A stretch of 63,074 bases of DNA, counting the filler, from Craspedostauros australis (taxonomy: Eukaryota), in the NCBI GenBank assembly GCA_030167865.1. It is 14 parts of 14 records of this genome, joined end to end, with 100 filler letters (N's around TTAATTAATTAA, not from the genome) between each part and the next. Parts side by side here need not be neighbours in the genome. Positions count along the whole stretch, not along the records: positions 46,315 to 60,322 come from JALAGF010005137.1; 13 more parts are not named here. One strand, given 5' to 3'. Made by a program: the position numbers and the translations under genes. The notes beneath the pieces are model-generated. The model had not been told where the DNA came from. It saw nothing but the letters and a program-made list of their open reading frames with translations, and did not search any database. Shown one piece after another: positions 30,591 through 62,775 of this stretch. Every line of letters starts with the position of its first letter. The first letter of the stretch is position 1.

Positions 30591-30704
30591 NNNNNNNNNN
30601 NNNNNNNNNNNNNNNNNNNNNNNNNNNNNNNNNNTTAATTAATTAANNNNNNNNNNNNNNNNNNNNNNNNNNNNNNNNNNNNNNNNNNNNTTAATTTTAC
30701 ACCA

Positions 30705-31672
30705 ACTTTATTTTCCGCCAATTACGATGTTTGCATAACTTTATTATCCGCCAATTACGATGTTTGCGTAACTTTATTATCTGCCAATTACCATCTTTGC
30801 ATAACTTTATTATTCGCCAATTACGATGTTTGTGTAACTTTATTATCTGCCAATTACCATCTTTGCATAACTTTATTATTCGCCAAATACCATCTTTGCG
30901 TAACTTTTCTATCCGCTAATTACCANNNNNNNNNNNNNNNNNNNNNNNNNNNNNNNNNNNNNNNNNNNNNNNNNNTTATTATTCGCCAATTACGATGTTT
31001 GTGTAACTTTACTATCCGCCAATTACCATCTTTGTGTAACTTTATTATCCGCCAATTACAATGTTTGGGTAACTTTATTATCTGCCAATTACCATCTTTG
31101 CATAACTTTATTATTCGCCAATTACGATGTTTGTGTAACTTTACTATCCGCCAATTACCATCTTTGCGTAACTTTATTATCTGCCAATTACGATGTTTGC
31201 ATAACTTTATTATTCGCCAATTACGATGTTTGGGTAACTTTACTATCCGCCAATTACCATCTTTGTGTAACTTTATTATCCGCCAATTACGATGTTTGGG
31301 TAACTTTATTATCTGTCAATTACGATGTTTGTGTAACTTTACTATCTGCCAATTACCATGTTTGCGTAACTTTATTATCTGCCAATTACGATGTTTGCGT
31401 AACTTTATTATCCGCCAATTCCGATGTTTGGGTAACTTTGTTATCTGTCAATTACAATGTTTGTGTAACTTTATTATCCGCCAATTACCATCTTTGCGTA
31501 ACTTTATTATCTGTCAATTACGATGTTTGCATAACTTTATTATCCGCCAATTACGATGTTTGCATAACTTTATTATCTGCCAATTACGATGTTTGGGTAA
31601 CTTTATTATCTGTCAATTACGATGTTTGCATAACTTTATTATCCGTCAAATACGATGTTTGCGTAACTTTAT
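30705..31672. repeat. AT-rich 33-bp tandem satellite
   Basis: Unit TTGCATAACTTTATTATCCGCCAATTACGATGT, roughly 27 visible copies either side of a gap, with variant positions. Confidence 0.97.
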
Positions 31673-32205
31673 TCCTCCATTCCAAAATTAGCAGCTACAC
31701 TGACAGCCAAAGACAAGCAAATCAATGGATACACAAACAGACCATGCACAACAGATTGTGACAAGCCTCTTTTTGGCTTNNNNNNNNNNNNNNNNNNNNN
31801 NNNNNNNNNNNNNNNNNNNNNNNNTAGTAAAATGTGGATTGTTTGGTAGTCACAAGCAAACATACACAAACACAGACAGCCATATGCATAAACAGCCACA
31901 GAACAAGAAACCATCTCTGCAGCCATGGTTGTAGCTCGAAATCGGTCTTTCTTGGATGATGATCCTGTGCTAAACGAGCAAACCCCGAGGTCCTGCAACA
32001 TCTCAGCTCTGTTCATCCCTACCCTTTTGTCTTGGTTGGTGTCAACTTCGGAGGTTGGGTGGGCCAACTGTGTCCTCAACTGACAGACGCTGGCAGTTCA
32101 GCACAGACACACAGACAGACAAACAATCTGGAGTAAACAGCCATAAACACACAATCACGAGGTTACAAAGTTTATGCCTTTTTGTACGCAATCGTCATTA
32201 TTCGC

Positions 32206-46314: not shown

Positions 46315-48431
46315 GAGCTCAACAAGATGCAATTGAGGAAGCAATGAGAGCTTCCAACCTACCCTGCAAGAATGGAGCTGCCTCATCAGCACTCGGTCAA
46401 TATGGAAGCCGAGATGGACGAGGAGCAACACGGATCGCTGATGCTGAACGTCTGTGCGCATGGCGCGCGCGACGCAACCGAGCACGAGCTTGCAGGCAGG
46501 GATGATAAGATGAAGGACAATCAAGACCTACGCAGGAATGGGCATGGCCCATGATCATGATCATCTCAAGAGTGACGCGAGGAGCAGCAATGGAAAGCAT
46601 CGAGATGATCACGTGGCACCGNNNNNNNNNNNNNNNNNNNNNNNNNNNNNNNNNNNNNNNNNNNNNNNNNNCGTGTGATACATGCTCGAGGGCTGGCTGC
46701 GATTCCTACTGTGAGATGATCGAGGAGGTAAGAATGCAATCTACCAGCCATGAATAGGCGACAACAACGAGAACAGCAACACAGGAAGTGTGTGCTTCGA
46801 CGAGAAGGGAAAGCGCTGCAACAAGCTGGACGGGAGGTCCTTCCGCGCTTCGATCCCAGGCTCAATACGAAAGACGAGGAACAAGCGGTGTCCTCGCCAT
46901 CGGAGAAGACGATGATTCAAGACCTCTACGAAGCCATGAACCTCATCTACGACCGCCACCGTATCAAACACGGTTATAAGTGCGCACGAGGAAATGGCAG
47001 TGAGAGAGTGAGAGAAAGATGACACTGACAACGGATCGGTCGGTTCAGGAGCAGATGTCCTAACCGCGATGCCCACGATAGTGAGATGAAGGAAGCCGGG
47101 TCGGCCAAGGTCGCGACAGACGGGATGGACGGGATGGATGACATCGCTCTCATCACAACCGACGAGCCGATGTCCATGCCCATCAACGAAACTGTGGTCG
47201 GCATCAACAATGTGACCAACGCGAAATTTGTGGCCATCACCGAAATCGCGAACAACGACCAAAATGTGACCATGAGAAACCACACGGTGATGCGCGACGA
47301 CAACGCGATCACGAACAACATGGCACTCGTAACAATCGACAATGATGGGGTTTCCGACTTCGACAGCGGAACACCAGTCAACGACTATGAGTGGACCAGG
47401 GAGGAGATAGCTGAGTACACTCNNNNNNNNNNNNNNNNNNNNNNNNNNNNNNNNNNNNNNNNNNNNNNNNNNCACTCCAGGAGTGTATAGCTACTACGGG
47501 TCTACGAACGATCACGATGGAGTGGATCAACAGACAACCCTTTTCATCCGAGAATGTGTTGGAAATCCGGGGTTAAGGTAGTAGATTAATCTGTTATCAA
47601 TCTGTACCAATTTAGAACTGTGAGATCAAACTCCTTGACTCTCCAATTCCAGTTCAGCAGCAAGTGTAATCTGTAGCAGTTCACCATGATCATGCACTTG
47701 TTCATGGTTGCTTTNNNNNNNNNNNNNNNNNNNNNNNNNNNNNNNNNNNNNNNNNNNNNNNNNNNNNNNNNNNNNNNNNNNNNNNNNNNNNNNNNNNNNN
47801 NNNNNNNNNNNNNNNNGCACAGGTACCTTCAGCATGGGTCTCAGTCTGATTGATCCCACTTGACTTTCGGTTCCTCAGTATTCCACCTGCGCCATCATCA
47901 CATACTCACCGGTCATGTTCAGTGCATGTCGCGTCGTCATTCGTGCTCTTGAGCGGATAGGAGCATCGCCTCCATTTCGCTTTCTCAGAGAAGCGATCCC
48001 TTGTCCGTCGATGCGCGTCGACATGTCTGATATATATCAACAGTTTCGCCCATAGTCTTGGCTCATGTGCGATTACATCCCTAGAGGTCGATCCATAGGT
48101 TCGCCCTCATTACAGCNNNNNNNNNNNNNNNNNNNNNNNNNNNNNNNNNNNNNNNNNNNNNNNNNNNNNNNNNNNNNNNGGTTGATGGGGGACAGGCTGC
48201 AAGGTGGTCCGAGTGTTACCAACAAAGTTGGCCTCGTCGAGTTGTGAAGATATTATTGGGAGGTGCGGCAATCATGGGTATCTTGGTAAAAGCGTACCCC
48301 CGATTCCTGACAAGAATGAAGAGGAAGACGGCAACGCCAACTACAATGAAGGCAAAACGAGTGATGAGGAGCGCAGAGGACTGCACATGAATGCAGGTCC
48401 GATCTGCCTCGTGGCTCGATACTCGTTGAGC
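46315..48431 (+). mobile_element. Second copy of the degenerate element at 36880-38235, interrupted by a solo LTR
   Basis: High, colinear nucleotide similarity to 36892-38235. Confidence 0.85.
47557..48312 (-). repeat. Solo LTR with 6-bp TSD AGAATG
   Basis: Reads TGTTGGAAATCCGGGGTTA...CGTACCCCCGATTCCTGACA, with AGAATG at 47551-47556 and 48313-48318. The empty site is visible at ~38117-38122. Orientation is inferred from the related LTR at 41213. Confidence 0.92.
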
Positions 48432-50526: not shown

Positions 50527-51874
50527 CCTTTTCTTGTTGTCGCTGTCGTTTCCGATTGTTGTTGATTGTTACTGATGATGATTGTTGCTGTTGTTGCTGA
50601 TTGTTTCTGTTGGTGGTCGGTATAATCGTACGAGTGGAGCAGGTAGAGCTGATAGAGCAGGCAGAGTNTGTGGTCCCAAATCAGTTGCGCTTGGATGGCG
50701 ATTGTGAGCTCATCTGCTCAAGTTTGATGTCCTCCATTTCATGATCCTGTGCATTGATCACGAAGCAACGTGTCGTCAGTCAACACGCCTGCATGGACTT
50801 GCGCAGTTCCACCACGGTGTATGGTGTGGTGTGGTGTGGTGTGGTTCGGTATGGTATAGTATGGCNNNNNNNNNNNNNNNNNNNNNNNNNNNNNNNNNNN
50901 NNNNNNNNNNNNNNNCTTCGATGATGCCCAACTTGGCCACGCTGTGCAGTTGTGCTTCATCATGTGATGCCATAGTACATCCCTCTGTGATGGTCTTGGG
51001 GGGAGTCAACCACGATACTATTATTATACTCCGATCGATACACTTCTTCGGGAGTTGGATGTCATCGAACGACTCCGATGGGCTGATCCACGATGTGAAG
51101 AATCCACGATGACTTCTTCGGTGGAAATCAGAGGCGTTTCTCATGTTCTGTGGCGATGACGATGACGACGATGGTGATGACACCACTCGTGTTTCAATCC
51201 ACAACAAACGTATCCAAGACTCCTTCCTGCCACCACGATGCGATTGGCACGATGCGATTGGCACGATGCGATCGTCAAACAGCACAACAACACCACAAGA
51301 AGCAGACTTCAAGACACTCCTCGCTTTCGTTCTTGGCGCCTCACCATGTTAGCACTATGATCGTACCCATGCACGCACAGAACGCCTCATCGTCAGTCGC
51401 CACTCACATGGACAAAGATCAAGACAAGGAGGTGATTGGAGCAGTGTGCACACCATCCCGCTACCATCAGCCAGTTGATCATCATGATTGTAGTACGACC
51501 ACCAAGCCACAACACCGCCAAGTTCGTCATCACATCATGATCCATCCATGCAAATCATGAGGATTCTTTCCATCGCTCGCATCTGCGTGGCAGTTGTGAT
51601 CCCCAGTTCTGTCATTGTCGATTCTACTGTTCGTGCTGATGATGGTGCTGATGATGGTGGTGCTGGTGCTGGTGATGTCAAGCAGCAGGATCGGGAACCG
51701 CAACTGAACATGACGCATCCACAACGTCTGCGGCCGCTCTAACTGCGCATCCCCGCACATGCAGCAAGGCACGGCATGTGGCACCAATTGCAACAGCAGC
51801 AACAAGAGCAACAGCAACAACCCTCTTCGACGATTCCACATGGGTTCTACTGTGCAGAACACACCAGGGCACCA

Positions 51875-51985
51875 TGTTGTGAGAGTCTGTGTCAGATGGA
51901 GAAACAGAGAATTTATGAGGTTGTTCTGCTGTTGTGGAGAAGGCAGACACAGCTGTGCCAGACTGACGTCGGCCAGACTATGACA
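51875..51985 (-). repeat. 3' LTR (111 bp, TGTCA...CAACA)
   Basis: Directly follows the G7 PPT and is identical to 59145-59252 over the visible length. Confidence 0.93.
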
Positions 51986-52052: not shown

Positions 52053-55000
52053 CTAGGCCTCAAGCCGAGCAGCAGACCACACCGGCACGAGTGCACCGGA
52101 AACGTTGTCCCAGTGCCTAAAGAATGTGGGCGGAGCCGTCTGCTTGGTGCCCATGTCGGCAGCATTCACAGTTGTGTCGATATCCATGAACGTGACGAGC
52201 TCGTTTTCGACCCACTGCTGCACGGCAAAATGCCGAATCTCAACATGTCGTGTGCGCCTTGAGGGTTGCCCAGCATTCGCTATCATGAGGGCCCCTTGAT
52301 TGTCCTCGTACAGAACAGTTGCCTGCACCTGCGGCACACCGAGCTCTTCCAGCGTACACCGCAGGCATAGGGCCATGCGACCCGCATCAGAGGCGCAGAG
52401 CAGCTCAGCCTCAGTGCTGGACATTGCCACTGTAGGCTGCACCCTCGCTTTCCATGCGACCGTGGCGCCGGCCAGCTTGAAGACGATGCTGGAAACGGAC
52501 CTGCGATGTCGAGTATCGGTGGCCCAGTCGCCATCGGCGTACCCGTAGAGGACAGAAGGATCTTCATTGGGATGGCGATGAAAGATACCATCCTGAACCG
52601 CAACGGCGGCCGGTAAAGGAAGGTCCGGAAGGTCCACGACCCGCTGAGTGCGATGGTATGTGACCCCACGATCCATCGTGCCATGAAGATATCGAAAGAT
52701 TCGCTTGACCGCCGTAAAGTGTAAAGCTGAAGGCCGTGCTGAGAACTGCGAGAGCTTGACCACGGGGAAAGTGATGTCGGGACGACAAGTCACCATGGGC
52801 CAGATAAGCTCACCAATAGCCTGCCGATATGACCCAAACTTGGCTTGAATCTTGCGAAGCTCACCAGAATCGAGTGCCTCCGCATCATCCAGAGCCTTGA
52901 TATGGGCGTTGCTGGCCGCCATGGGAAGTTCAGTGTCATGCATGTCGTTGTTGGAAATCCGGGGTTATAGTAGTAGACTAATCTGTTATCAGTCTGTACC
53001 GTTTTAGAACTGTGAGCACAACATGCTCATCTCCTTTCGATTCCAATTCACAACAAGCATGATCTGCAGTAGCCACCCGAGATTACACCCTTCAGCTTGG
53101 CTCCTTTCGTCTGTATCTTCATCTTGCTTTCATCGTGGTTCATTGCTTGCTTGGCTGAGGATTGGAGAGCACCTACATTCGTCAAGTTCATACTCGTAGA
53201 CCTGTAGGTACCTCTCCTTCGGTCTCTTGTCACCTCACTGGTCCCACTTCATTTCAGTTCCTCCCTTCGGTCATCTCGATGGTTGCCTTTGGATGCTTGG
53301 AACTTATTGTCATCTGGATCGTGGTCTTGGGTGAATAGGGATCGCCTCTGTNNNNNNNNNNNNNNNNNNNNNNNNNNNNNNNNNNNNNNNNNNNNNNNNN
53401 NNNNNNNNNNNNNNNNNNNNNNNNNNNNNNNNNNNNNNNNNNNNNNNNNNNNNNNNNNNNNNNNNNNNNNNNNNNNNNNNNNNNNNNNNNNNNNNNNNNN
53501 NNNNNNNNNNNNNNNNNNNNNNGTGCAACTGGTCGATTGCTAGGTTGCGGTTTGTCTGGGAGATGCTATTGGGGGTTGCGGCAATCGTGGGTATCTTTGC
53601 ACTTAACACCATTCCGGTTCCAGTCAGTCCTCATGGGAGCTGCGGTAGAATACGGTATCTTTGCAAAGTCGTACCCCCGATTCCTGACATGTCGTCCCAA
53701 TCATGACGCCGGAATACCTTGCCGAGGTACGTGGCGTTGTGCATGGTGATATGCGTGGATGTTTGAATGATGTCGGCCCCATTGAAGTGTTGGAGCAAAC
53801 CAAAACGCTTCATGGGCACGAAGAGAAACCCATCAAGTTCATCACAGATCGCCCCAAACGTGTCAGCACTGTCGCATGCGATGGCGAAGTCGTCAACTTG
53901 TCTGAGGAACAGAACATCGCGCCCTTTGTACATGGCCCTGTAAAGGCACGGCGCATGCGTGGTCGGCTTGAACCCCATGCGCTGCAGTTGAGCATCGATG
54001 TGTCTTGCCCACTGCCGGGGCGCCTCAGGATGTCCTTGAAGGTTCTTGCATATGGGAATGACATGCCCTTTCGGAATGGGTGGCTTGCCTTTCGACTTCC
54101 ACCAGTTGGCGAATGGTATGTCCACGTGCATGAAGTACCGCTGCTCACCGCAAGGGGCTTCTGCAAATGCATTGGACACATCGGCTCCGTAGATTTTCTT
54201 GTTTTCCAAAGCCGAGATGGCCACAAAAAGTCGGAAATCCGTAGCATCTGGTGTCGCAGTGAAGGTGTGTCCAGTGATGACGGCCTTTCCTGCGCGAGGA
54301 GATCCATCGCACACTGCGCGAGCCTTGCGTCGCGTCTCAGTGGGATTCTGCTTGAGCACGTACACCCAGACCCAATGGAACACTTGATCACCGCCCTGAG
54401 CAGCCACTGGGTTGCCGAACATGCCCTGGTCGTCGTATTGCTGGAGCTGTTGAAACTCAGATTGCTCCCAAAGCTCCCAGTCGTCTTGACCACGCAACGC
54501 TCGTCGTGTGAGCTTGAGCGCCACTCGACGACGTGAAGATGAGTCGTCGCCGCCGTCGTCTTTGGCGGCACGGCATAGCGCCCGGATGTCTCGCCACTGG
54601 TCGAAGTACAGTTGTATCAGACCACGAGCTGACAGAGTGTTGCGGATGGCATCAAAAGCGAACGTGAAGGTGGCTTGAGTTTCACCAAGTCCTCGAGCGT
54701 CACGGACGACCGCCTCAAGCTCCGGCAGGTCGCATACTGGCAAGCCATTGACCGCCAGCAAGTATGCGCCGCGAAGCCGTGATTTCCACTGGGGTACACG
54801 CCGTGCGCGCTGCCCAGAAGAAATGTCGAAGAGTCGAAGCCTCTCACGGTGATTGTTCGAGTTCCACTCGATGCCCGCATGCGGATGGTTGCCGAACAAC
54901 GGTATGTCCACGTCGAAAGACGTGTCATACGGATGGCCGGACATGTCCAGCATCATGACGTCGTTCATGGGTGACTTGGCATGCACGGCTGCAGCAGACG

Positions 55001-56869
55001 CAGCCGGCGCGATGTGGAATCCATCACGGAGAGGCAGCGGAACGAAACTTGCACCTTGAATCCCAGGTAGGATTTTGAGTTTGTCCAGTGTTGGTTGAAC
55101 GGCGAAAGTTGGACCACCAATTTCTGGTTCCGCAGCCGCATCTTTGACAGGGGCCTCAACCTGTTCAGCACCCAGGTCGAAGAGAAGTTGGGCTGATGGT
55201 GGACGATCCGTGCACATGTAGTGTGCCTCATCGAACACCACGGAACCACCAACCTTGACAGTGCCGGAGTCCAGATCGATGTACCGAATATTGACTCCAT
55301 CGCCCATGAATCCAAGGAAGATCCCGCTGTATGTGTGCACATCCAGCTTCCGGATGGCTTTGTCAGGCTTGCGAACCGTGACGCGAGATCCAAATACCCT
55401 CAAATGTGCAATATCGGGGATATTGCCGTTGAGCGCTTCGTACGGCGTTTTGTCAATGGCAGCATGCCACATGCGATTGCGCAGATACGCAGCATGTAGC
55501 AGCGCAGCCGACCAATACTGCGGTGGTAGACCAGCCCCATACAGCATGGCACGAACCATGACCGCGTACACGCGATTGAGTCTCTCAGCCTTGCCATTTC
55601 GATGATGTACACCGGCGCCCGTTGGTTCGAGGACGTACCCAGCATCACGAACCATTTCCGCGAATGCCCGGGATGTGTACAACTCACCACCATGATCCAC
55701 TCGAATGGCACGGTAGCCGTCCTTCCGACCGAACCGTTGGAGGTGTGTACGCACCACATCGACTGGAGTGCTCTTGCCTTCGGTGTTAAACACCCATGCG
55801 TACCTCGAGTATGCATCCACGATGAGTAGATATGCAGTACATCGGTCAAAGGATTCCACCACTGCCGGCATGTTCTTGACTTTGGCGTACTGAGACGAGC
55901 TCGCACGCATGTAGCCGAAGTCCATATGGAATCGGGAACCAACTGCCAGAGCGGAAACGTCAGCAGTAGGACCTCTCGGTTGTCGCTGTGCACGGGCCTC
56001 CATGCACGTGGTGCACATGCGGACCGGATGTTGACCGGCTGCAACCTTGGTGGGGATGCCCACAGAGTGTTGTGGAAGGTGCACCATCTGATGATGCCCA
56101 GGATGTCCGAGGCGCTGATGCCACAGCTCGTATGTGAGGGCCTTGTTCCCAGTAGACGCTGTCACGCTGTGTACAGAGTACAGAGCCATGAAAAAGTAGA
56201 GGTCGTTGATCCTCACCATGGAAGCGCGCTTGGAGAACTTGTGTGCGTTGCCATAGAACCTGACATGGGGGTCATTACGATCCCTGCACACCACATCGAA
56301 GGTGTCATACACCGCCGAGTGCTCACAGATGAGCTGTGGAGAGAGAAGAGTGGCCGAGACGTGCTGGCAGAAGTACATCGGGATGGGGATGACATCGCCA
56401 TCGTCGAGTCTGAATGGAAAGACACCACGGTGTGTGCACACCATAGCACCTGACCTGACGTCGGCGCCGGATAGGTCGAGTGGAATGTCGAGCGGAGTCA
56501 CGTCCGCAAGGACGTGTTTGGCATTGGTGACTGAGATGTTGGCACCCAAGTCGCACTGCTGACGGGCAGCGCTGTTGAATCCGCCAACCGGTGTCACATG
56601 ATGGATCAGGGGAACGCTGTGTATACGTTCATGATCACCTCTCGCCTCATGGGCAACAACACATGCGATTCTTGGCCCTTCAGGTATGAGCATGTGCCAC
56701 TCAGTCGGCTGCGCGGGTGGCTTTGGAAGCACCTGCGAGGTCGACTGAGTACCATGGGCCTGTGATGGCGCAGGCAGTATGCCAACGGAGTTGGCTGGCC
56801 CTGAATCTACCGCGCATTCATGTGTGATAAGCCGTTCACCAGCAGAAGGATGTGCTGGCCGGCTTAGGA
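52053..56869 (-). CDS. Copia Pol (protease, integrase, PDZ-like, RT, RNase H), interrupted by a solo LTR at 52949-53689
   Basis: PR: CDLGANIS. IN: WHQRLGH..C..C, HMDFG, IRVDHGGE, NGKAER. RT: KARAVCDG, ADVSNAF, LQGHPEA, RQVDDF. RH: YADGDWA, STEAE, YEDNQG, AADMGTK. Removing the insertion restores DWDDMHDTELPM in frame. Confidence 0.95.
52949..53689 (-). repeat. Solo LTR with 6-bp TSD TGTCGT inserted in RT
   Basis: Same termini as 47557-48312, with TGTCGT at 52943-52948 and 53690-53695. Confidence 0.93.
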
Positions 56870-56876
56870 AAAATCC
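56828..56876 (-). promoter_or_regulatory. Putative -1 programmed ribosomal frameshift signal (G_GAT_TTT plus stem-loop)
   Basis: The heptamer at 56876-56870 lies one codon before the gag stop. The -1 frame is open from there into pol. A stem follows: TAAGCCG-G-CCAGCA-loop-TGCTGG-TGAA-CGGCTTA. Confidence 0.75.
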
Positions 56877-58970
56877 TGCCCGAACTGGAGCACGGACATG
56901 AGAAGGTCGTCGTCGTCGACATCGGACCCATCATCATCATTCGCCCTGGTTTGAAGCACCCTTGCAACGGCCTTGCGCCCATCGGGTGTGGCCATCTTCA
57001 TGAGGGTGTTGCCCAGTTTCTCGGCCAGCTTCATGTTCTTCTCGCGGAAGCTGGCAAGATTTTGGTGGCGAGCAAGGAACACGCAGCTGGTGCTCTCGTG
57101 CCCTCCACGGCCGCAAGCAGCGCAGATGGCGCCCTTGACTGGCTTGCGGAAGTCGTCGCGGCGAGCGCGGAAGTCTTGATTGACCCCATCATCATCGTCA
57201 TCGCTCGCACGATCGCGATTCCCGCGACCACGGCTCTGGCCATGTGGACCGCCTTGGCGTCGTTGGGACCGAGTCATGGCATGTGCGGTCTTGGTGTCAC
57301 CCGCACTGTCAGCGAGCTTGACAGCCAGTTCCCCAACGTGTAGGGTATGAGGAAAGCTGGAGTCATCTTCACGCGCGAGAACCAGCTCCTTGTACTGATT
57401 GACGTTGTGTCCGGCGCTCTGCATCTCATCCAAAAAATGAATGGATGCTCGACGTGGACTGAACTGATGCAGGGACCCATGTTGGTCAACGAAGGTCATG
57501 AGGGACGTCGCGAAAGAGATGACGCCTTGTTTCCCATCAAACCTTGGTGGCATGGGAATGCCCGCAGCCGCCGGCGCTGTCACCGTGCACTGTAGGACGC
57601 GATGCAGAAAGTGGAATGCGTTGAGCATTTCAAAGCTTCGCGTCTGCAGGAAGCGCTGGTAGTGGATGGCAAGCTTCGTGTCAGGCTTGACCTCGAGCAC
57701 CCCTGGCGACAGCAGCTTCATGGCGTGCGCCGCGTTGATAGCAGCGACCGTGCTGCTGGTGAGGAAGGATGGAAACACGACGCAGTCGACCCTGTAGAAG
57801 GAAAGGGGAATGATGTACGCGCCGTACTGCTCCGCCACCATCTGGTAGTGTTCATACCATGTGCGGACATGGTGAGGTTCCAGACTGCTGAGAGGAGTGA
57901 CATGGGCATCAAGGAAGCCTCGCTTGTCAACTTGAATGCGCGAGCTGGCTTGATATTGCCACGTGGGATGTTTCTTGAGGTCGACACCATAAGGCGCGGA
58001 ATCGTGGTACCTGGCACGGTGTGCCGAGTCTTCACGCATGATGTCATCGAAGAAGTCGTACCCACTGGAGCCGTCCACGTGAGTGCGCGCGTTGGCAGCA
58101 GCACCACGTTGGTTGGCACCGGTGGGAGCCCCGCGATTGCCATGGCGAGGCGTGCGGAAGTCGGGCGTGGGAATGCCACGCTCGAACATGTCCACGAGCT
58201 CGGGGTCGTCGACCACGGACCGGTCGAATGCAACGCCACCGTCGTCGCGCTCACGAGTGACGGCGTTGTTCGCAGGTGCGTCGGCATGCGTCGCAGTCCT
58301 GGACCGATCACCGCGGGCGCCGAGTCTTGGAGTAGTGTCCCGCCTTGGTGTGAGCACCACCGCAGGGTGTGTCGCGATGGGCGGACCGGCCGCATGGCAA
58401 GTCGAAGGTGCCCCCCAACGATGGGATGTTCACGGACGTATCGGAGGCGATGGGATCACCACCCCGATAGAGAGCGGCAGAGAAGCTCGACCACTGAAAG
58501 CCAACTGGCAACGTGGACTGCTGGTACCACTCGCGTAGCGTCTTGAGCTCGTTGAGGTCAGGCTTGCTGATGGACCCGTACAGATTGACCTGCGCGGCAG
58601 CGCGCTGGTCACTGGAGATGCGAAGAAGATTGTGGAACCGCCCCCACACTGAAGGTTCGTCGAGGCAGTTGGTGAAGTACTTGGCCACCGTGGCGGCACC
58701 GGCTGGAGAAAGGTAAGCCACGCGAAGAATGGGCTGTACGAGTGTGCCAGGATCGAAGCTTGCTGGCAGCGCACCGTCGCCGAGCGCCGCAGTGTTGTCG
58801 TTGACATCGCCGGTGACGCCTCCGCCGCGAACGTTGGTACTGCCCCCGTCGCCACGAGAGTCGCCCACGCCGTCGCCGGGCACAGCGTTGTCAGCACCAG
58901 TGCCAAGCGCGTCATCGCCAGTAAGGCTGGATTGGTTGGTGGTGGTGGAGTCGGTTGTGTTGGTCGTCAT
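56864..58970 (-). CDS. Copia Gag with CCHC zinc knuckle; one +1 frameshift near 58411-58416
   Basis: Contains CAACGRGGHESTSC (CX2CX4HX4C). The ORF from ATG 58970 joins the 56864-58360 ORF if one base is removed from the C6 run. Confidence 0.82.
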
Positions 58971-59144: not shown

Positions 59145-59252
59145 TGTGAGAGTCTGTGTCAGATGGAGAAACAGAGAATTTATGAGGTTGTTCTGCTGTT
59201 GTGGAGAAGGCAGACACAGCTGTGCCAGACTGACGTCGGCCAGACTATGACA
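59145..59252 (-). repeat. 5' LTR (last 3 nt lost in gap)
   Basis: Identical to 51878-51985. Confidence 0.9.
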
Positions 59253-60422
59253 CATGTGACACGCCACCTCCTCATCCATCTCTATCCGAACAGGTACCTT
59301 ATTCGTGAGTGAATCGGCGATCAGTCCCGTGTTCAACCAACCATCGACCCTCGGCGATAGATTGGTGACCATGACGATGATGGACTCATCATCGAACACC
59401 CCCACGCTGCACCTTCGGGCACCGCATCTTTCCGTGCAGATCCGAGATCCCTCCCACTACCACTGCAACGCAGCGCAATGCAATGCAACACCATCCCAAC
59501 AAAGACAAGAGATGAAGCTGCGCGAGCAATTCATCTCCAACAGCGCAGACACCCATCATCTCCCAAGACAAGTGATGGTGCTTGATCCGCGAACAAGACA
59601 TCGCACGATGTCCGACCATTTCGCAGCCACAACAATTGGCTTTGGCAAGTTCTTGTTCTGCTCTTTGATTTGGCGATGTCTGTTTTGTGGCATCTCATGA
59701 AGCAGTATTCCGCAGCAAGCAGACGAAGACTTGCCTCCTGGATCGTGGTGTGACGACGCAGGTGATGAGAAGCACAGACTGGACCAGGCAATCTCAAGGA
59801 GGCGAAGGCAACTTTGTTCAACATAAATCATGGGCATCCGTACTCAAGTGCAATCGATACACCATTGGCCGTTCTTGTCTTCCATCAATCACAACGCTGG
59901 CTTGTTGATCATGAAGGCACTGCGGTGACTCGGCGCTGCTACGCTATTTGCGGCGATGATCGCTGGGAGTGCAGTCCCAACAGCAAGTGCCATGGGGAAT
60001 ACAACGGTGAGTCACCTGGATCATCGCACTCATTGCCCTCTGGTGGCCTTCACTGACGTCTTCCATGTTGGGTTCTTCGCCCGCTGAATCCGTACAATAC
60101 GTCCATTCGTTCGTATACATGTATGCATGCATGCATTTATGTATGCATGTGTGTAGCATGTATGTATGCTCGCCCTCACCCTGGACCATTCCGCCAAATC
60201 CTCTCTCTCTCTCTCTCTCTCGCTGTGTTCACGCTGCCTGTACTTGCGATCATCACAACAAATCGGATGAAACGAATTCGCTCAATCAACTTGAACTGGA
60301 ACGACTGTGCCCATCACAACAANNNNNNNNNNNNNNNNNNNNNNNNNNNNNNNNNNNNNNNNNNNNTTAATTAATTAANNNNNNNNNNNNNNNNNNNNNN
60401 NNNNNNNNNNNNNNNNNNNNNN

Positions 60423-61331
60423 CACCATGAGAACATGTATGGAGGGAATCGAATACGAATGGCTCACCCCTGAAGGATGGTACAGTACAGGCCAACGGCA
60501 AGGCAATTTTGTATGGGAATCTGCTCCTGCAGCTGCGGATGCGATGATCGATCAGATTGGCAAAGCGCGGCACAAGCGACCCCAGAACCTGCACGTGGTC
60601 TGCATACCCAGATTAATGACTGGTCGGTGGCGGAGGAAGCTGTTGCGGTTGNNNNNNNNNNNNNNNNNNNNNNNNNNNNNNNNNNNNNNNNNNNNNNNNN
60701 NGACTGTGGAATCGTACCGCAGGGAATGTAGAATAAGGATATGCACGACAAGGTGCATGGAAAGAATGCCTACGGATATGCACGATGATGTGCATGATAA
60801 AGGATGCCTGCGGATGCGATCTCATGTATGCAAGCGATGATTCATGATGATGAGATGCATGAACGCTACGGTATAACACGACGCTGCTGTAGGAAATGCT
60901 ACATGAGAAACGAAAGGCAAAGGAGCTGAAGAGAATGAGCTCACAGTTCTGAATAGTACAATCTAACAACCAATTAGTTCTTACTAACACTAACCCCGGA
61001 TTTCCAACACAAGCAACCCCAGAACCTGCATGTGGTCTGCATACCCAGATTGATGACTGGTCGGTGGCGGAGGAGGCTGTTGCGGTTGAGTGACTTCTAC
61101 TTCAAGGTTGAACGGTGTCATGAATGGCCTGCTCACCTGCTGGAGCCTTTGTTTGTCTTCATTTTTCTTCCTTATCTCTCTTGGAACCCCAGACTCGACG
61201 AACAACGCAAGCTATTGGAAGAACCAAATGAGGTTCTGCTGCAGCAAGGTGTGTGGGAAGCTGATCCAATCAGGTGCAGGCGTGTTCTGCGCGAACTTCT
61301 CCAGTCCGCGCGGGCCCTTTGCCCCCTGTAG
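60423..61331 (+). CDS. C-terminal methyltransferase-like region of a DIRS-type pol ORF (two overlapping versions, one interrupted by an LTR)
   Basis: WLTPEGW..FVWESAPAAA..KARHKRP..HVVCIPRLMTGRWRR.L..SDF..WP...EPL follows the pattern of the DIRS MT-like domain, with a degenerate xPP motif. Confidence 0.6.
60702..61009 (+). repeat. Partial LTR of the TAACCCCGGATTTCCAACA-terminus family inserted in the DIRS-like element
   Basis: Ends TAACCCCGGATTTCCAACA, the exact reverse complement of the 47557 and 52949 termini. Uninterrupted target sequence is seen at ~60565-60651. Confidence 0.85.
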
Positions 61332-62775
61332 GTCAGCTTGGTGCGGCTCGTGCTATGGCGAGATTGGAGACAAGAACTTTCCTGTCCAAACTGCCAATGA
61401 CGATGACGGTATCGATCTCACTCCGGATACCGACAAGACTCGCTTCCGAATAGCCCGAAACGGTGACCATCTTATGGTGCCGTTTCAGTGCGATCGCTGT
61501 CACTTCCGCAATATCATGCTCCGCGAGCCACTTAACCACAGACAACAGGATCGAGAGATGCTTGTCTACATTCGACAAGCCAACCTCGACGCCTTTTGGA
61601 GCAGAGAACCATCCACTGTCGCGGCAAATCTTCGCGAAGCCCGACGCATAGAAGCTTTTGCGGATCGGTTGAACATCCCATCCATCAGCGCTCCACTGGG
61701 GCCCTTCCCGCTTCAAGACTCGTGTGGCATGGCTGGAGCAATGGCAGTACTCGACAGGTCCTTGGATACAGGTCGCTATGCGACCAATGTTCAATGGGAG
61801 ACCTTTCGACGCACCAGGTCGGTCATCACCAATATTCACCAAGTGGGTGTTGCTGGACTTGGGGAGTCTGTCATGGCATACAAGAGGTCCCGCATGTGGA
61901 TGTCAAGTGTGCCGTCGCATCAGTTCTGGTTCACTCGATTCATGGAAGGCACCCACAGGAGAGTGGGNCAGATCCGCAAGCCAGCTCGTGCCTACACCAT
62001 TGACGAGATCCATGGGCTGGAAGCTCTGTTGGAGCAAGAGTGGAGAATGGACAACGATCACTCCCGGCGCAAGAGAACCGCAGAAGTGGCTATGCTTACA
62101 ATTGTGGCCTTCTGCACTGGGCTGAGGGGAGAGGAGATGCTACAAATCGACCTTCTTGCTACCTCTTCGAGTCTCAAGCATCTTCAAGATGTGAAGCTTC
62201 CGCACGCACGGCTTGCCATCATCGGTCGCACAAAAGGCAACAGGCATGACGGAGCACGATTCGACGTTCCATGTGTGAAGACAACTTCAGGCACCGGATT
62301 ACAACCCGGCAAATGGATCAAGCGAATGGTGCGACAAGTCGAAGGTGCGGGACTTCGTNNNNNNNNNNNNNNNNNNNNNNNNNNNNNNNNNNNNNNNNNN
62401 NNNNNNNNAATGGTGCGACAAGTCGAAGGTGCGGGACTTCGTAATGGCAAGCTTTTGACGAGGAAACTGAATCCGCCAAGGCTCCTGGAGTTTCGGGACG
62501 ACGTATATGTGGCGCTGGAGGCCTTGCAGGCCCAAGCCATAATCGATACAGAGGTGGATATCCGAGACAAATACGGTCTTGACCGCTCAGCTCGCAGAGG
62601 GTCCACTTCTCACGCGATCAACATGCGTGTTCCAAGAGATATCATCATGGCAAACAACAGATGGCGAACCGAAGCCAACTCAGTCTCGGGAAACCCAAGA
62701 CTGGACATGGTGGACACCTACTCAGCACTGGAGTCACTGCTTCCTGCTGTATTGGAGTACTCGAAGCAGATGTGA
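61228..62775 (+). CDS. Tyrosine recombinase with Cys-rich N-terminal region
   Basis: Catalytic-domain motifs: GLRGEE (R1), GRTKG (K), DRSARRG (HxxR position), NNRWR and MVDTY (Tyr). The N-terminus has CANF, C..AWC..CY and FQCDRCHF. The start is uncertain (frame open from 61090, first ATG 61117 or 61228). Confidence 0.85.
   Translation: MRFCCSKVCGKLIQSGAGVFCANFSSPRGPFAPCRSAWCGSCYGEIGDKNFPVQTANDDDGIDLTPDTDKTRFRIARNGDHLMVPFQCDRCHFRNIMLREPLNHRQQDREMLVYIRQANLDAFWSREPSTVAANLREARRIEAFADRLNIPSISAPLGPFPLQDSCGMAGAMAVLDRSLDTGRYATNVQWETFRRTRSVITNIHQVGVAGLGESVMAYKRSRMWMSSVPSHQFWFTRFMEGTHRRVXQIRKPARAYTIDEIHGLEALLEQEWRMDNDHSRRKRTAEVAMLTIVAFCTGLRGEEMLQIDLLATSSSLKHLQDVKLPHARLAIIGRTKGNRHDGARFDVPCVKTTSGTGLQPGKWIKRMVRQVEGAGLRXXXXXXXXXXXXXXXXXMVRQVEGAGLRNGKLLTRKLNPPRLLEFRDDVYVALEALQAQAIIDTEVDIRDKYGLDRSARRGSTSHAINMRVPRDIIMANNRWRTEANSVSGNPRLDMVDTYSALESLLPAVLEYSKQM

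Follow-up and report, generated by a model that had tools for sequence, protein, structure and literature searches.

Sequence evidence for probable programmed -1 frameshifting at the gag/pol junction of a Ty1/copia retrotransposon clade in a diatom genome

The window, by which we mean the whole stretch of 63,074 nucleotides analysed here (filler included), is made up of 14 parts of the Craspedostauros australis assembly GCA_030167865.1 and carries, on the minus strand, a gag/pol junction that lies within a Ty1/copia LTR retrotransposon (Table 1). The element has two direct LTRs with TG...CA ends, flanked by a 5-bp target duplication; a G7 tract precedes the 3' LTR and the PBS position coincides with an N gap in this copy. 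The Pfam domains of pol follow the copia order, with PF13976, PF00665 and PF25597 ahead of PF07727 (an RVT_2-type RT), and we assume the protease and RNase H labels from their motifs, the RNase H-like part having no Pfam match. The gag ORF of the window copy returned zero Pfam matches and none of 8000 candidates was scored in a search for gag homologs; the Atlas clusters nearest to gag (0.92) carry zf-CCHC, which is a lead only. Two lesions private to this copy make it defective: near 58411 its length differs by one base from that of two other copies, which splits gag, and RT contains an insertion that is presumably hAT-like. The junction signal would thus have worked in ancestors and relatives of this copy, and not necessarily in the copy itself. 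The terminal word of the RT insertion recurs at 47557 (+) and 60994 (-), with similar ends in locus L043, and this short element apparently also sits in other copia copies.

Table 1. Features of the copia element and its gag/pol junction, in window positions
Feature	Position	Strand	Remarks
5' LTR, TG...CA, 108 bp	59145..59252	-	identical to 3' LTR; 5-bp target duplication at 59253-59257
gag-like region	56864..58970	-	one ORF at 56864-58429, another from 58308 upward
slippery heptamer G_GAU_UUU (gag codons GAT TTT)	56870..56876	-	37/38 cassette contigs, 13/14 families
6-nt spacer TCC TAA, holding the gag stop (56864-56866)	56864..56869	-	6 nt in 38/38, by the pattern used
lower stem, 5' arm (GCCG)	56860..56863	-	compensatory C-G to U-A change in 4/20 rows
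upper stem (7 bp, invariant basal G-U) and 8-nt loop	56838..56859	-	7/8 upper pairs changed on both sides
3-nt purine bulge GAA	56835..56837	-	either GAA or GAG in every family; doubles as a Glu codon of pol
lower stem, 3' arm (CGGC)	56831..56834	-	stem alignment and RNAalifold
stem extension of this family, formed by UUA with the UAA stop	56828..56830	-	absent from the alignment fold
pol, 5' part: protease-like motif, GAG-pre-integrase, integrase core, SH3-like, RVT_2	53688..56876	-	Pfam PF13976, PF00665, PF25597, PF07727
insertion breaking RT, imperfect terminal inverted repeats, N gap within	52949..53687		8-bp duplication (CATGTCGT)
pol, 3' part: RT end and RNase H-like region	52053..52948	-	96% identity to uninterrupted copy L052
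3' LTR, 108 bp, G7 polypurine tract before it	51878..51985	-	target duplication at 51873-51877

The genome contains 92 matches to the silicon transporter family PF03842 (best E 2.6e-247), and this abundance of silicon-transporter genes identifies the host as a diatom. No sequence of a named CoDi element (CoDi1-7) occurred among the 120 + 120 homologs listed. The closest database proteins, read as proteins without their DNA context, are mostly pol-sized and without gag domains, which fits split ORFs. In many protein relatives (P0016-P0086 and others), a dUTPase domain (PF00692) lies within copia pol. Elsewhere in the window, an array of a 33-nt unit extends over 30609-31770 in at least 24 registers, and a 561-aa ORF occupies 61090-62775 (+), the first 417 aa of which have no significant Pfam match; its motifs resemble those of a tyrosine recombinase and look DIRS/Crypton-like.

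At the junction, a 521-codon ORF (56864-58429) ends in CAG GAT TTT TCC TAA, and a 1099-codon ORF in the -1 frame (53631-56930) is open across it, reading GF|FLSRPAHPSAGERL, with its first pol Met 61 codons past the heptamer. The first-pass annotation, which had described this gag end, a -1 pol frame and the lack of an ATG for more than 50 codons, was thus accurate on all three points. Its two-part stem of 7 plus 6 bp is real, with the correction that the upper stem has 7 pairs when the basal G-U is counted. The proposed start 3 nt after the heptamer holds for this family, whose own stem is lengthened by three initial pairs (UAA:UUA); the part shared among families starts at 6 nt. The 51 nt past the heptamer fold into the two-part stem with its GAA bulge at an MFE of -20.2 kcal/mol (z -4.33), and none of 200 shuffled sequences was as stable. 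Rfam covariance models run over 56500-57200 gave only two sub-threshold miRNA matches and no frameshift family. A DNA search recovered four assembled copies of the family, all with an identical cassette and none with a T-run length that would fuse gag and pol, an outcome that the annotation had named as fatal to its reading; the junction is therefore not an assembly slip.

Relatives were collected by a protein search with protease-integrase (103 matches, 102 of 413 candidates scored) and from further stretches, so that loci were fetched by protein similarity and not by motif. Among the 49 contigs of the clade examined in this genome, 38 carry the cassette, with G_GAU_UUU in 37 and A_CAU_UUU in one; many of these contigs are near-duplicates, so that some 14 families, which are 44-72% identical in protease-integrase and form two subclades of a quick tree, serve as the independent units. 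Seven of the other 11 contigs end before the junction, one is cut by an insert and three are decayed (one with a degenerate cassette), and in-frame fusion of gag and pol occurs in none of the 11. Throughout the 38 cassette contigs the heptamer is in slip phase; the 0 frame upstream of it is gag, barely visible in the five contigs that begin just before the junction, and pol is in the -1 frame. The downstream ORF overlaps gag in the -1 frame and has no conserved start of its own. The heptamer and, as described below, the stem are conserved among copies and relatives; the stop lies 3 nt past the heptamer in the subclade that includes the window's family, and in the second subclade it falls within the loop of the hairpin, 18 nt past the heptamer. 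The A_CAU_UUU contig (L012/L051, G000:C911) represents a single-copy family with the same spacer and stem, and both its gag (630+ aa) and its pol (1363 aa) are open. Three further copies (L053, L054 and L036) combine 100% identical LTR pairs, open gag and pol and the cassette, indicating that elements moved recently while carrying it.

A synonymous control was available in the protease-integrase region of the 14 families, where the median four-fold third-position identity is 0.33, near saturation, and none of 96 invariant amino-acid columns keeps one codon (0/10 for Asp/Phe columns). The codons used in the heptamer are in the minority there (GAT 111 vs GAC 156; TTT 95 vs TTC 156), yet 13 of 14 families have GAT at the junction and all 14 have TTT. 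Within the heptamer, only the UUUU run is retained in 14/14. Measured against this control, the heptamer is conserved beyond coding need. It is non-canonical in that GGA stands in the place of XXX.

The structure shared among families starts 6 nt past the heptamer and consists of a 4-bp lower stem, an invariant G-U, an upper stem of 5-8 bp and a GAA/GAG bulge on the 3' side. Stimulatory structures usually lie 5-9 nt downstream of the heptamer, and here a covarying bulged stem follows a 6-nt spacer. In 20 distinct junctions, chosen with a pattern that includes the heptamer and 5' arm and themselves the source of the structure, 93.9% of 229 cells pair, compared with 85.2 +/- 1.0 after shuffling and 25-45% in slid controls. 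Changes on both sides were found in 8 of the 12 stem pairs, a count that none of 500 shuffles reached and that is inflated by the shared ancestry of the rows. When no structure was supplied, RNAalifold returned 10 of the same pairs, six of them compensatory. The GAR bulge and its neighbours could partly reflect coding constraint, as they also encode G-E-R in pol. Searched across the genome, the full pattern with the heptamer included gave 47 matches vs 0 for a reversed control, and the stem-only pattern was unspecific (384 matches vs 379). We also considered a pseudoknot. Pairing of the loop with downstream sequence reached P=0.026 over the 14 families, with 7 bp in L019 and L030; it is weak overall, strong in these two families and absent in the window's family, and an H-type pseudoknot stimulator appears not to be general. 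In the alignment a GCG(G/C/A)G word lies at a fixed distance downstream, and inspection by eye revealed no partner common to all families.

The frames, heptamer, spacing and covarying stem shared across families support a programmed -1 shift, and the -1 recoding that the first-pass annotation had proposed for this lineage gains from the constant phase, the 6-nt spacer, the saturation of synonymous sites elsewhere, the compensatory stem changes and the lack of a shared ATG. Very probably, then, the conserved heptamer, 6-base spacer and bulged hairpin cause a minority of ribosomes to slip into the -1 frame and make Gag-Pol. The slip would most likely be tandem: a ribosome whose P site holds GAU and whose A site holds UUU would pause at the hairpin, whose stimulatory part would comprise the 4-bp lower stem, the GAR bulge and the upper stem closed by G-U; on re-pairing with GGA UUU the match would be perfect for the A-site tRNA and partial for the P-site tRNA. 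Most ribosomes would instead terminate at UAA, the gag stop that follows after 3 nt, yielding an excess of Gag, and the nearby stop perhaps helps, as in pea enation mosaic virus. We infer slippage, its efficiency and the role of the stop codon from the features observed at the junction. Against this reading it counts that every intact cassette comes from one genome, with none in 37 metagenome loci, that GGA is a non-canonical XXX, and that in A_CAU_UUU of L012 the P-site tRNA cannot re-pair, yet gag and pol are open. In the accessible part of the report on pea enation mosaic virus (PMC4737148), mutants in the U-run of the heptamer drop to background and those in which P-site re-pairing is blocked retain 36-40% activity; by analogy, this residual activity may explain the A_CAU_UUU variant.

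That pol might instead come from spliced RNA, from re-initiation or from an internal promoter, the heptamer and stem having some other RNA role (splicing, packaging or dimerisation), we regard as unlikely. Splicing is known in Drosophila copia and BARE1 (PMC3735527, in part), the Tca2 junction has a weak promoter and drove no readthrough in yeast (PMC2194720, in part), and L012 lacks a re-pairing P-site codon, all of which lend this explanation some weight. It does not account for an overlap that is always -1 and a heptamer always in slip phase at 6-nt spacing, and copia splicing as described in the same partly available source (PMC3735527) takes pol out of a single ORF and does not generate it. 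Re-initiation is further opposed by the positions of Met ahead of the protease, which are not shared among families and of which there are none at all in 2 of the 12 families listed (L023 and L024).

Slippage of a polymerase on the T4-T5 run, whether in transcription or reverse transcription, could also fuse the frames by adding a base, and would suit the retention of the UUUU run as the sole heptamer part in every family. With a run of merely four or five T, and a covarying stem at ribosomal spacing that such slippage would leave without a purpose, it is less probable still; at the level of reverse transcription it would moreover leave fused copies, of which there are none among the 38 contigs. 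The least credible explanation is a chance frameshift mutation or an assembly error in a single-ORF element, for which one could cite the other lesions of the window copy (the gag break and the RT insert) and an assembly rich in N gaps; it is refuted by an arrangement common to all four family copies and to 38 contigs from deeply diverged families. Programmed -1 frameshifting remains our preferred reading of the junction.

Other arrangements occur among more distant relatives. A protein-based metagenome scan yielded 37 loci, among them a sister clade at 34-45% identity, and none of the 37 has an intact cassette. In three decayed, AT-shifted loci from another host (L108, L110 and L111), GGATTTT is followed after 5-6 nt by GCCGG and a remnant stem, with unreadable frames. 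In 15 of the 37 loci (L075, L076, L078, L079, L081-L083, L085-L087, L089, L096, L102, L103 and L106) gag and pol are in one frame with a single TGA between them, in 14 cases as Glu-TGA-C (mostly with CGG or CAG next), and most then have a GC-rich hairpin. To judge from this layout, the sister-clade junctions look like UGA readthrough. In a quick tree, a branch (SH-aLRT 93) separates 15 cassette rows from 12 UGA rows, the cassette rows being interleaved with 16 proteins from other assemblies that are known from protein alone. In the diatom genome itself, a second, distant copia clade (L058 = L135, L136-L138, L140 and L142; 38-100% identity) also has pol in a -1 overlap, with G_GGT_TTT at five loci and C_GGT_TTT at one, and a hydrophobic pol N-terminus after the heptamer, and L061 and L066 are single long ORFs. 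Viral contigs contained no pol relatives, and their 23 pattern matches were treated as chance, the full stem being present in one of 23 and none lying near copia pol. With only slightly more confidence than doubt, we propose that these diatom elements represent the first instance of programmed -1 frameshifting within Ty1/copia, that their compact bulged hairpin is a new signal, and that such elements may have switched repeatedly among G_GAU_UUU, G_GGU_UUU, in-frame UGA-C with a hairpin, and single ORFs.

Frameshifting by -1 between gag and pol is already known as such, and we found no report of it in the copia superfamily. No copia -1 site appeared in the literature searched, which lies outside subscription journals and Repbase notes and represents Gao et al. 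2003 through citing papers, and no papers were found that join copia, frameshift and slippery. The word 'frameshift' is absent from PMC7017206, PMC8147415 and bioRxiv 2025.10.24.684338, and the accessible parts of PMC6875170, PMC3587641 and PMC6317226 contain no copia -1 site. In the portions available of the work on CoDi diatom elements (Maumus et al. 2009, PMC2806351), neither the direction of the frame nor a slip site or RNA structure is given; its list of CoDi ORF1/ORF2 (Additional file 1) may already reveal how the frames relate.

An entire copia clade that bears a covarying -1 signal would break the textbook split, under which retroviruses and many gypsy elements use -1 shifting and copia elements rely on one ORF, splicing or +1 shifting. 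The clade also supplies a new, small natural candidate for a frameshift RNA (~46 nt) with many natural variants, and gives direct access to the way diatom ribosomes recode. With close relatives that apparently use UGA readthrough at this junction, the clade lends itself to the study of how recoding signals replace each other. For annotation, two-frame elements of this kind should not count as pseudogenes.

Among known systems, a close match in layout is found in plant RNA viruses, in line with the first-pass annotation's statement that G_GAU_UUU functions in some of them: in the parts available, PMC4737148 and PMC5009743 describe it as a tested -1 site of pea enation mosaic virus, and the former includes mutants. 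As in RNA2 of that virus and in umbra-, diantho- and luteoviruses, G_GAU_UUU is combined with a stop 3 nt on, a 5-6 nt spacer and a bulged stem-loop; the viral element, however, has a much larger hairpin and long-distance pairing with the 3' end, whereas the diatom hairpin spans ~33-36 nt with a 3-nt bulge (PMC4737148, in part). Within the copia superfamily, the survey of Gao et al. 2003, as cited in the accessible text of PMC5009743 and PMC3735527, found the overwhelming majority of elements to have one ORF, and the same sources assign +1 shifting to Ty1 and to two-frame copia cases in plants. The diatom clade would share with Ty1 (+1), Drosophila copia and BARE1 (splicing) and Tca2 (gag-UGA-pol) a limitation of Pol relative to Gag, but none of these has a -1 heptamer plus stem, as far as the available parts of PMC5009743, PMC3735527 and PMC2194720 describe them. 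The metagenomic sister clade resembles Tca2 in layout. Like retroviral and Ty3/gypsy gag-pol junctions, those of the diatom clade have a -1 overlap with a heptamer and 3' structure that would set the Gag:Gag-Pol ratio, although in a different superfamily. The HIV-1 frameshift stem-loop has a purine bulge. Overall, the signal in the diatom clade looks closer to the plant-virus type, with an umbravirus-type heptamer and a bulged hairpin, than to a classical retroviral pseudoknot.
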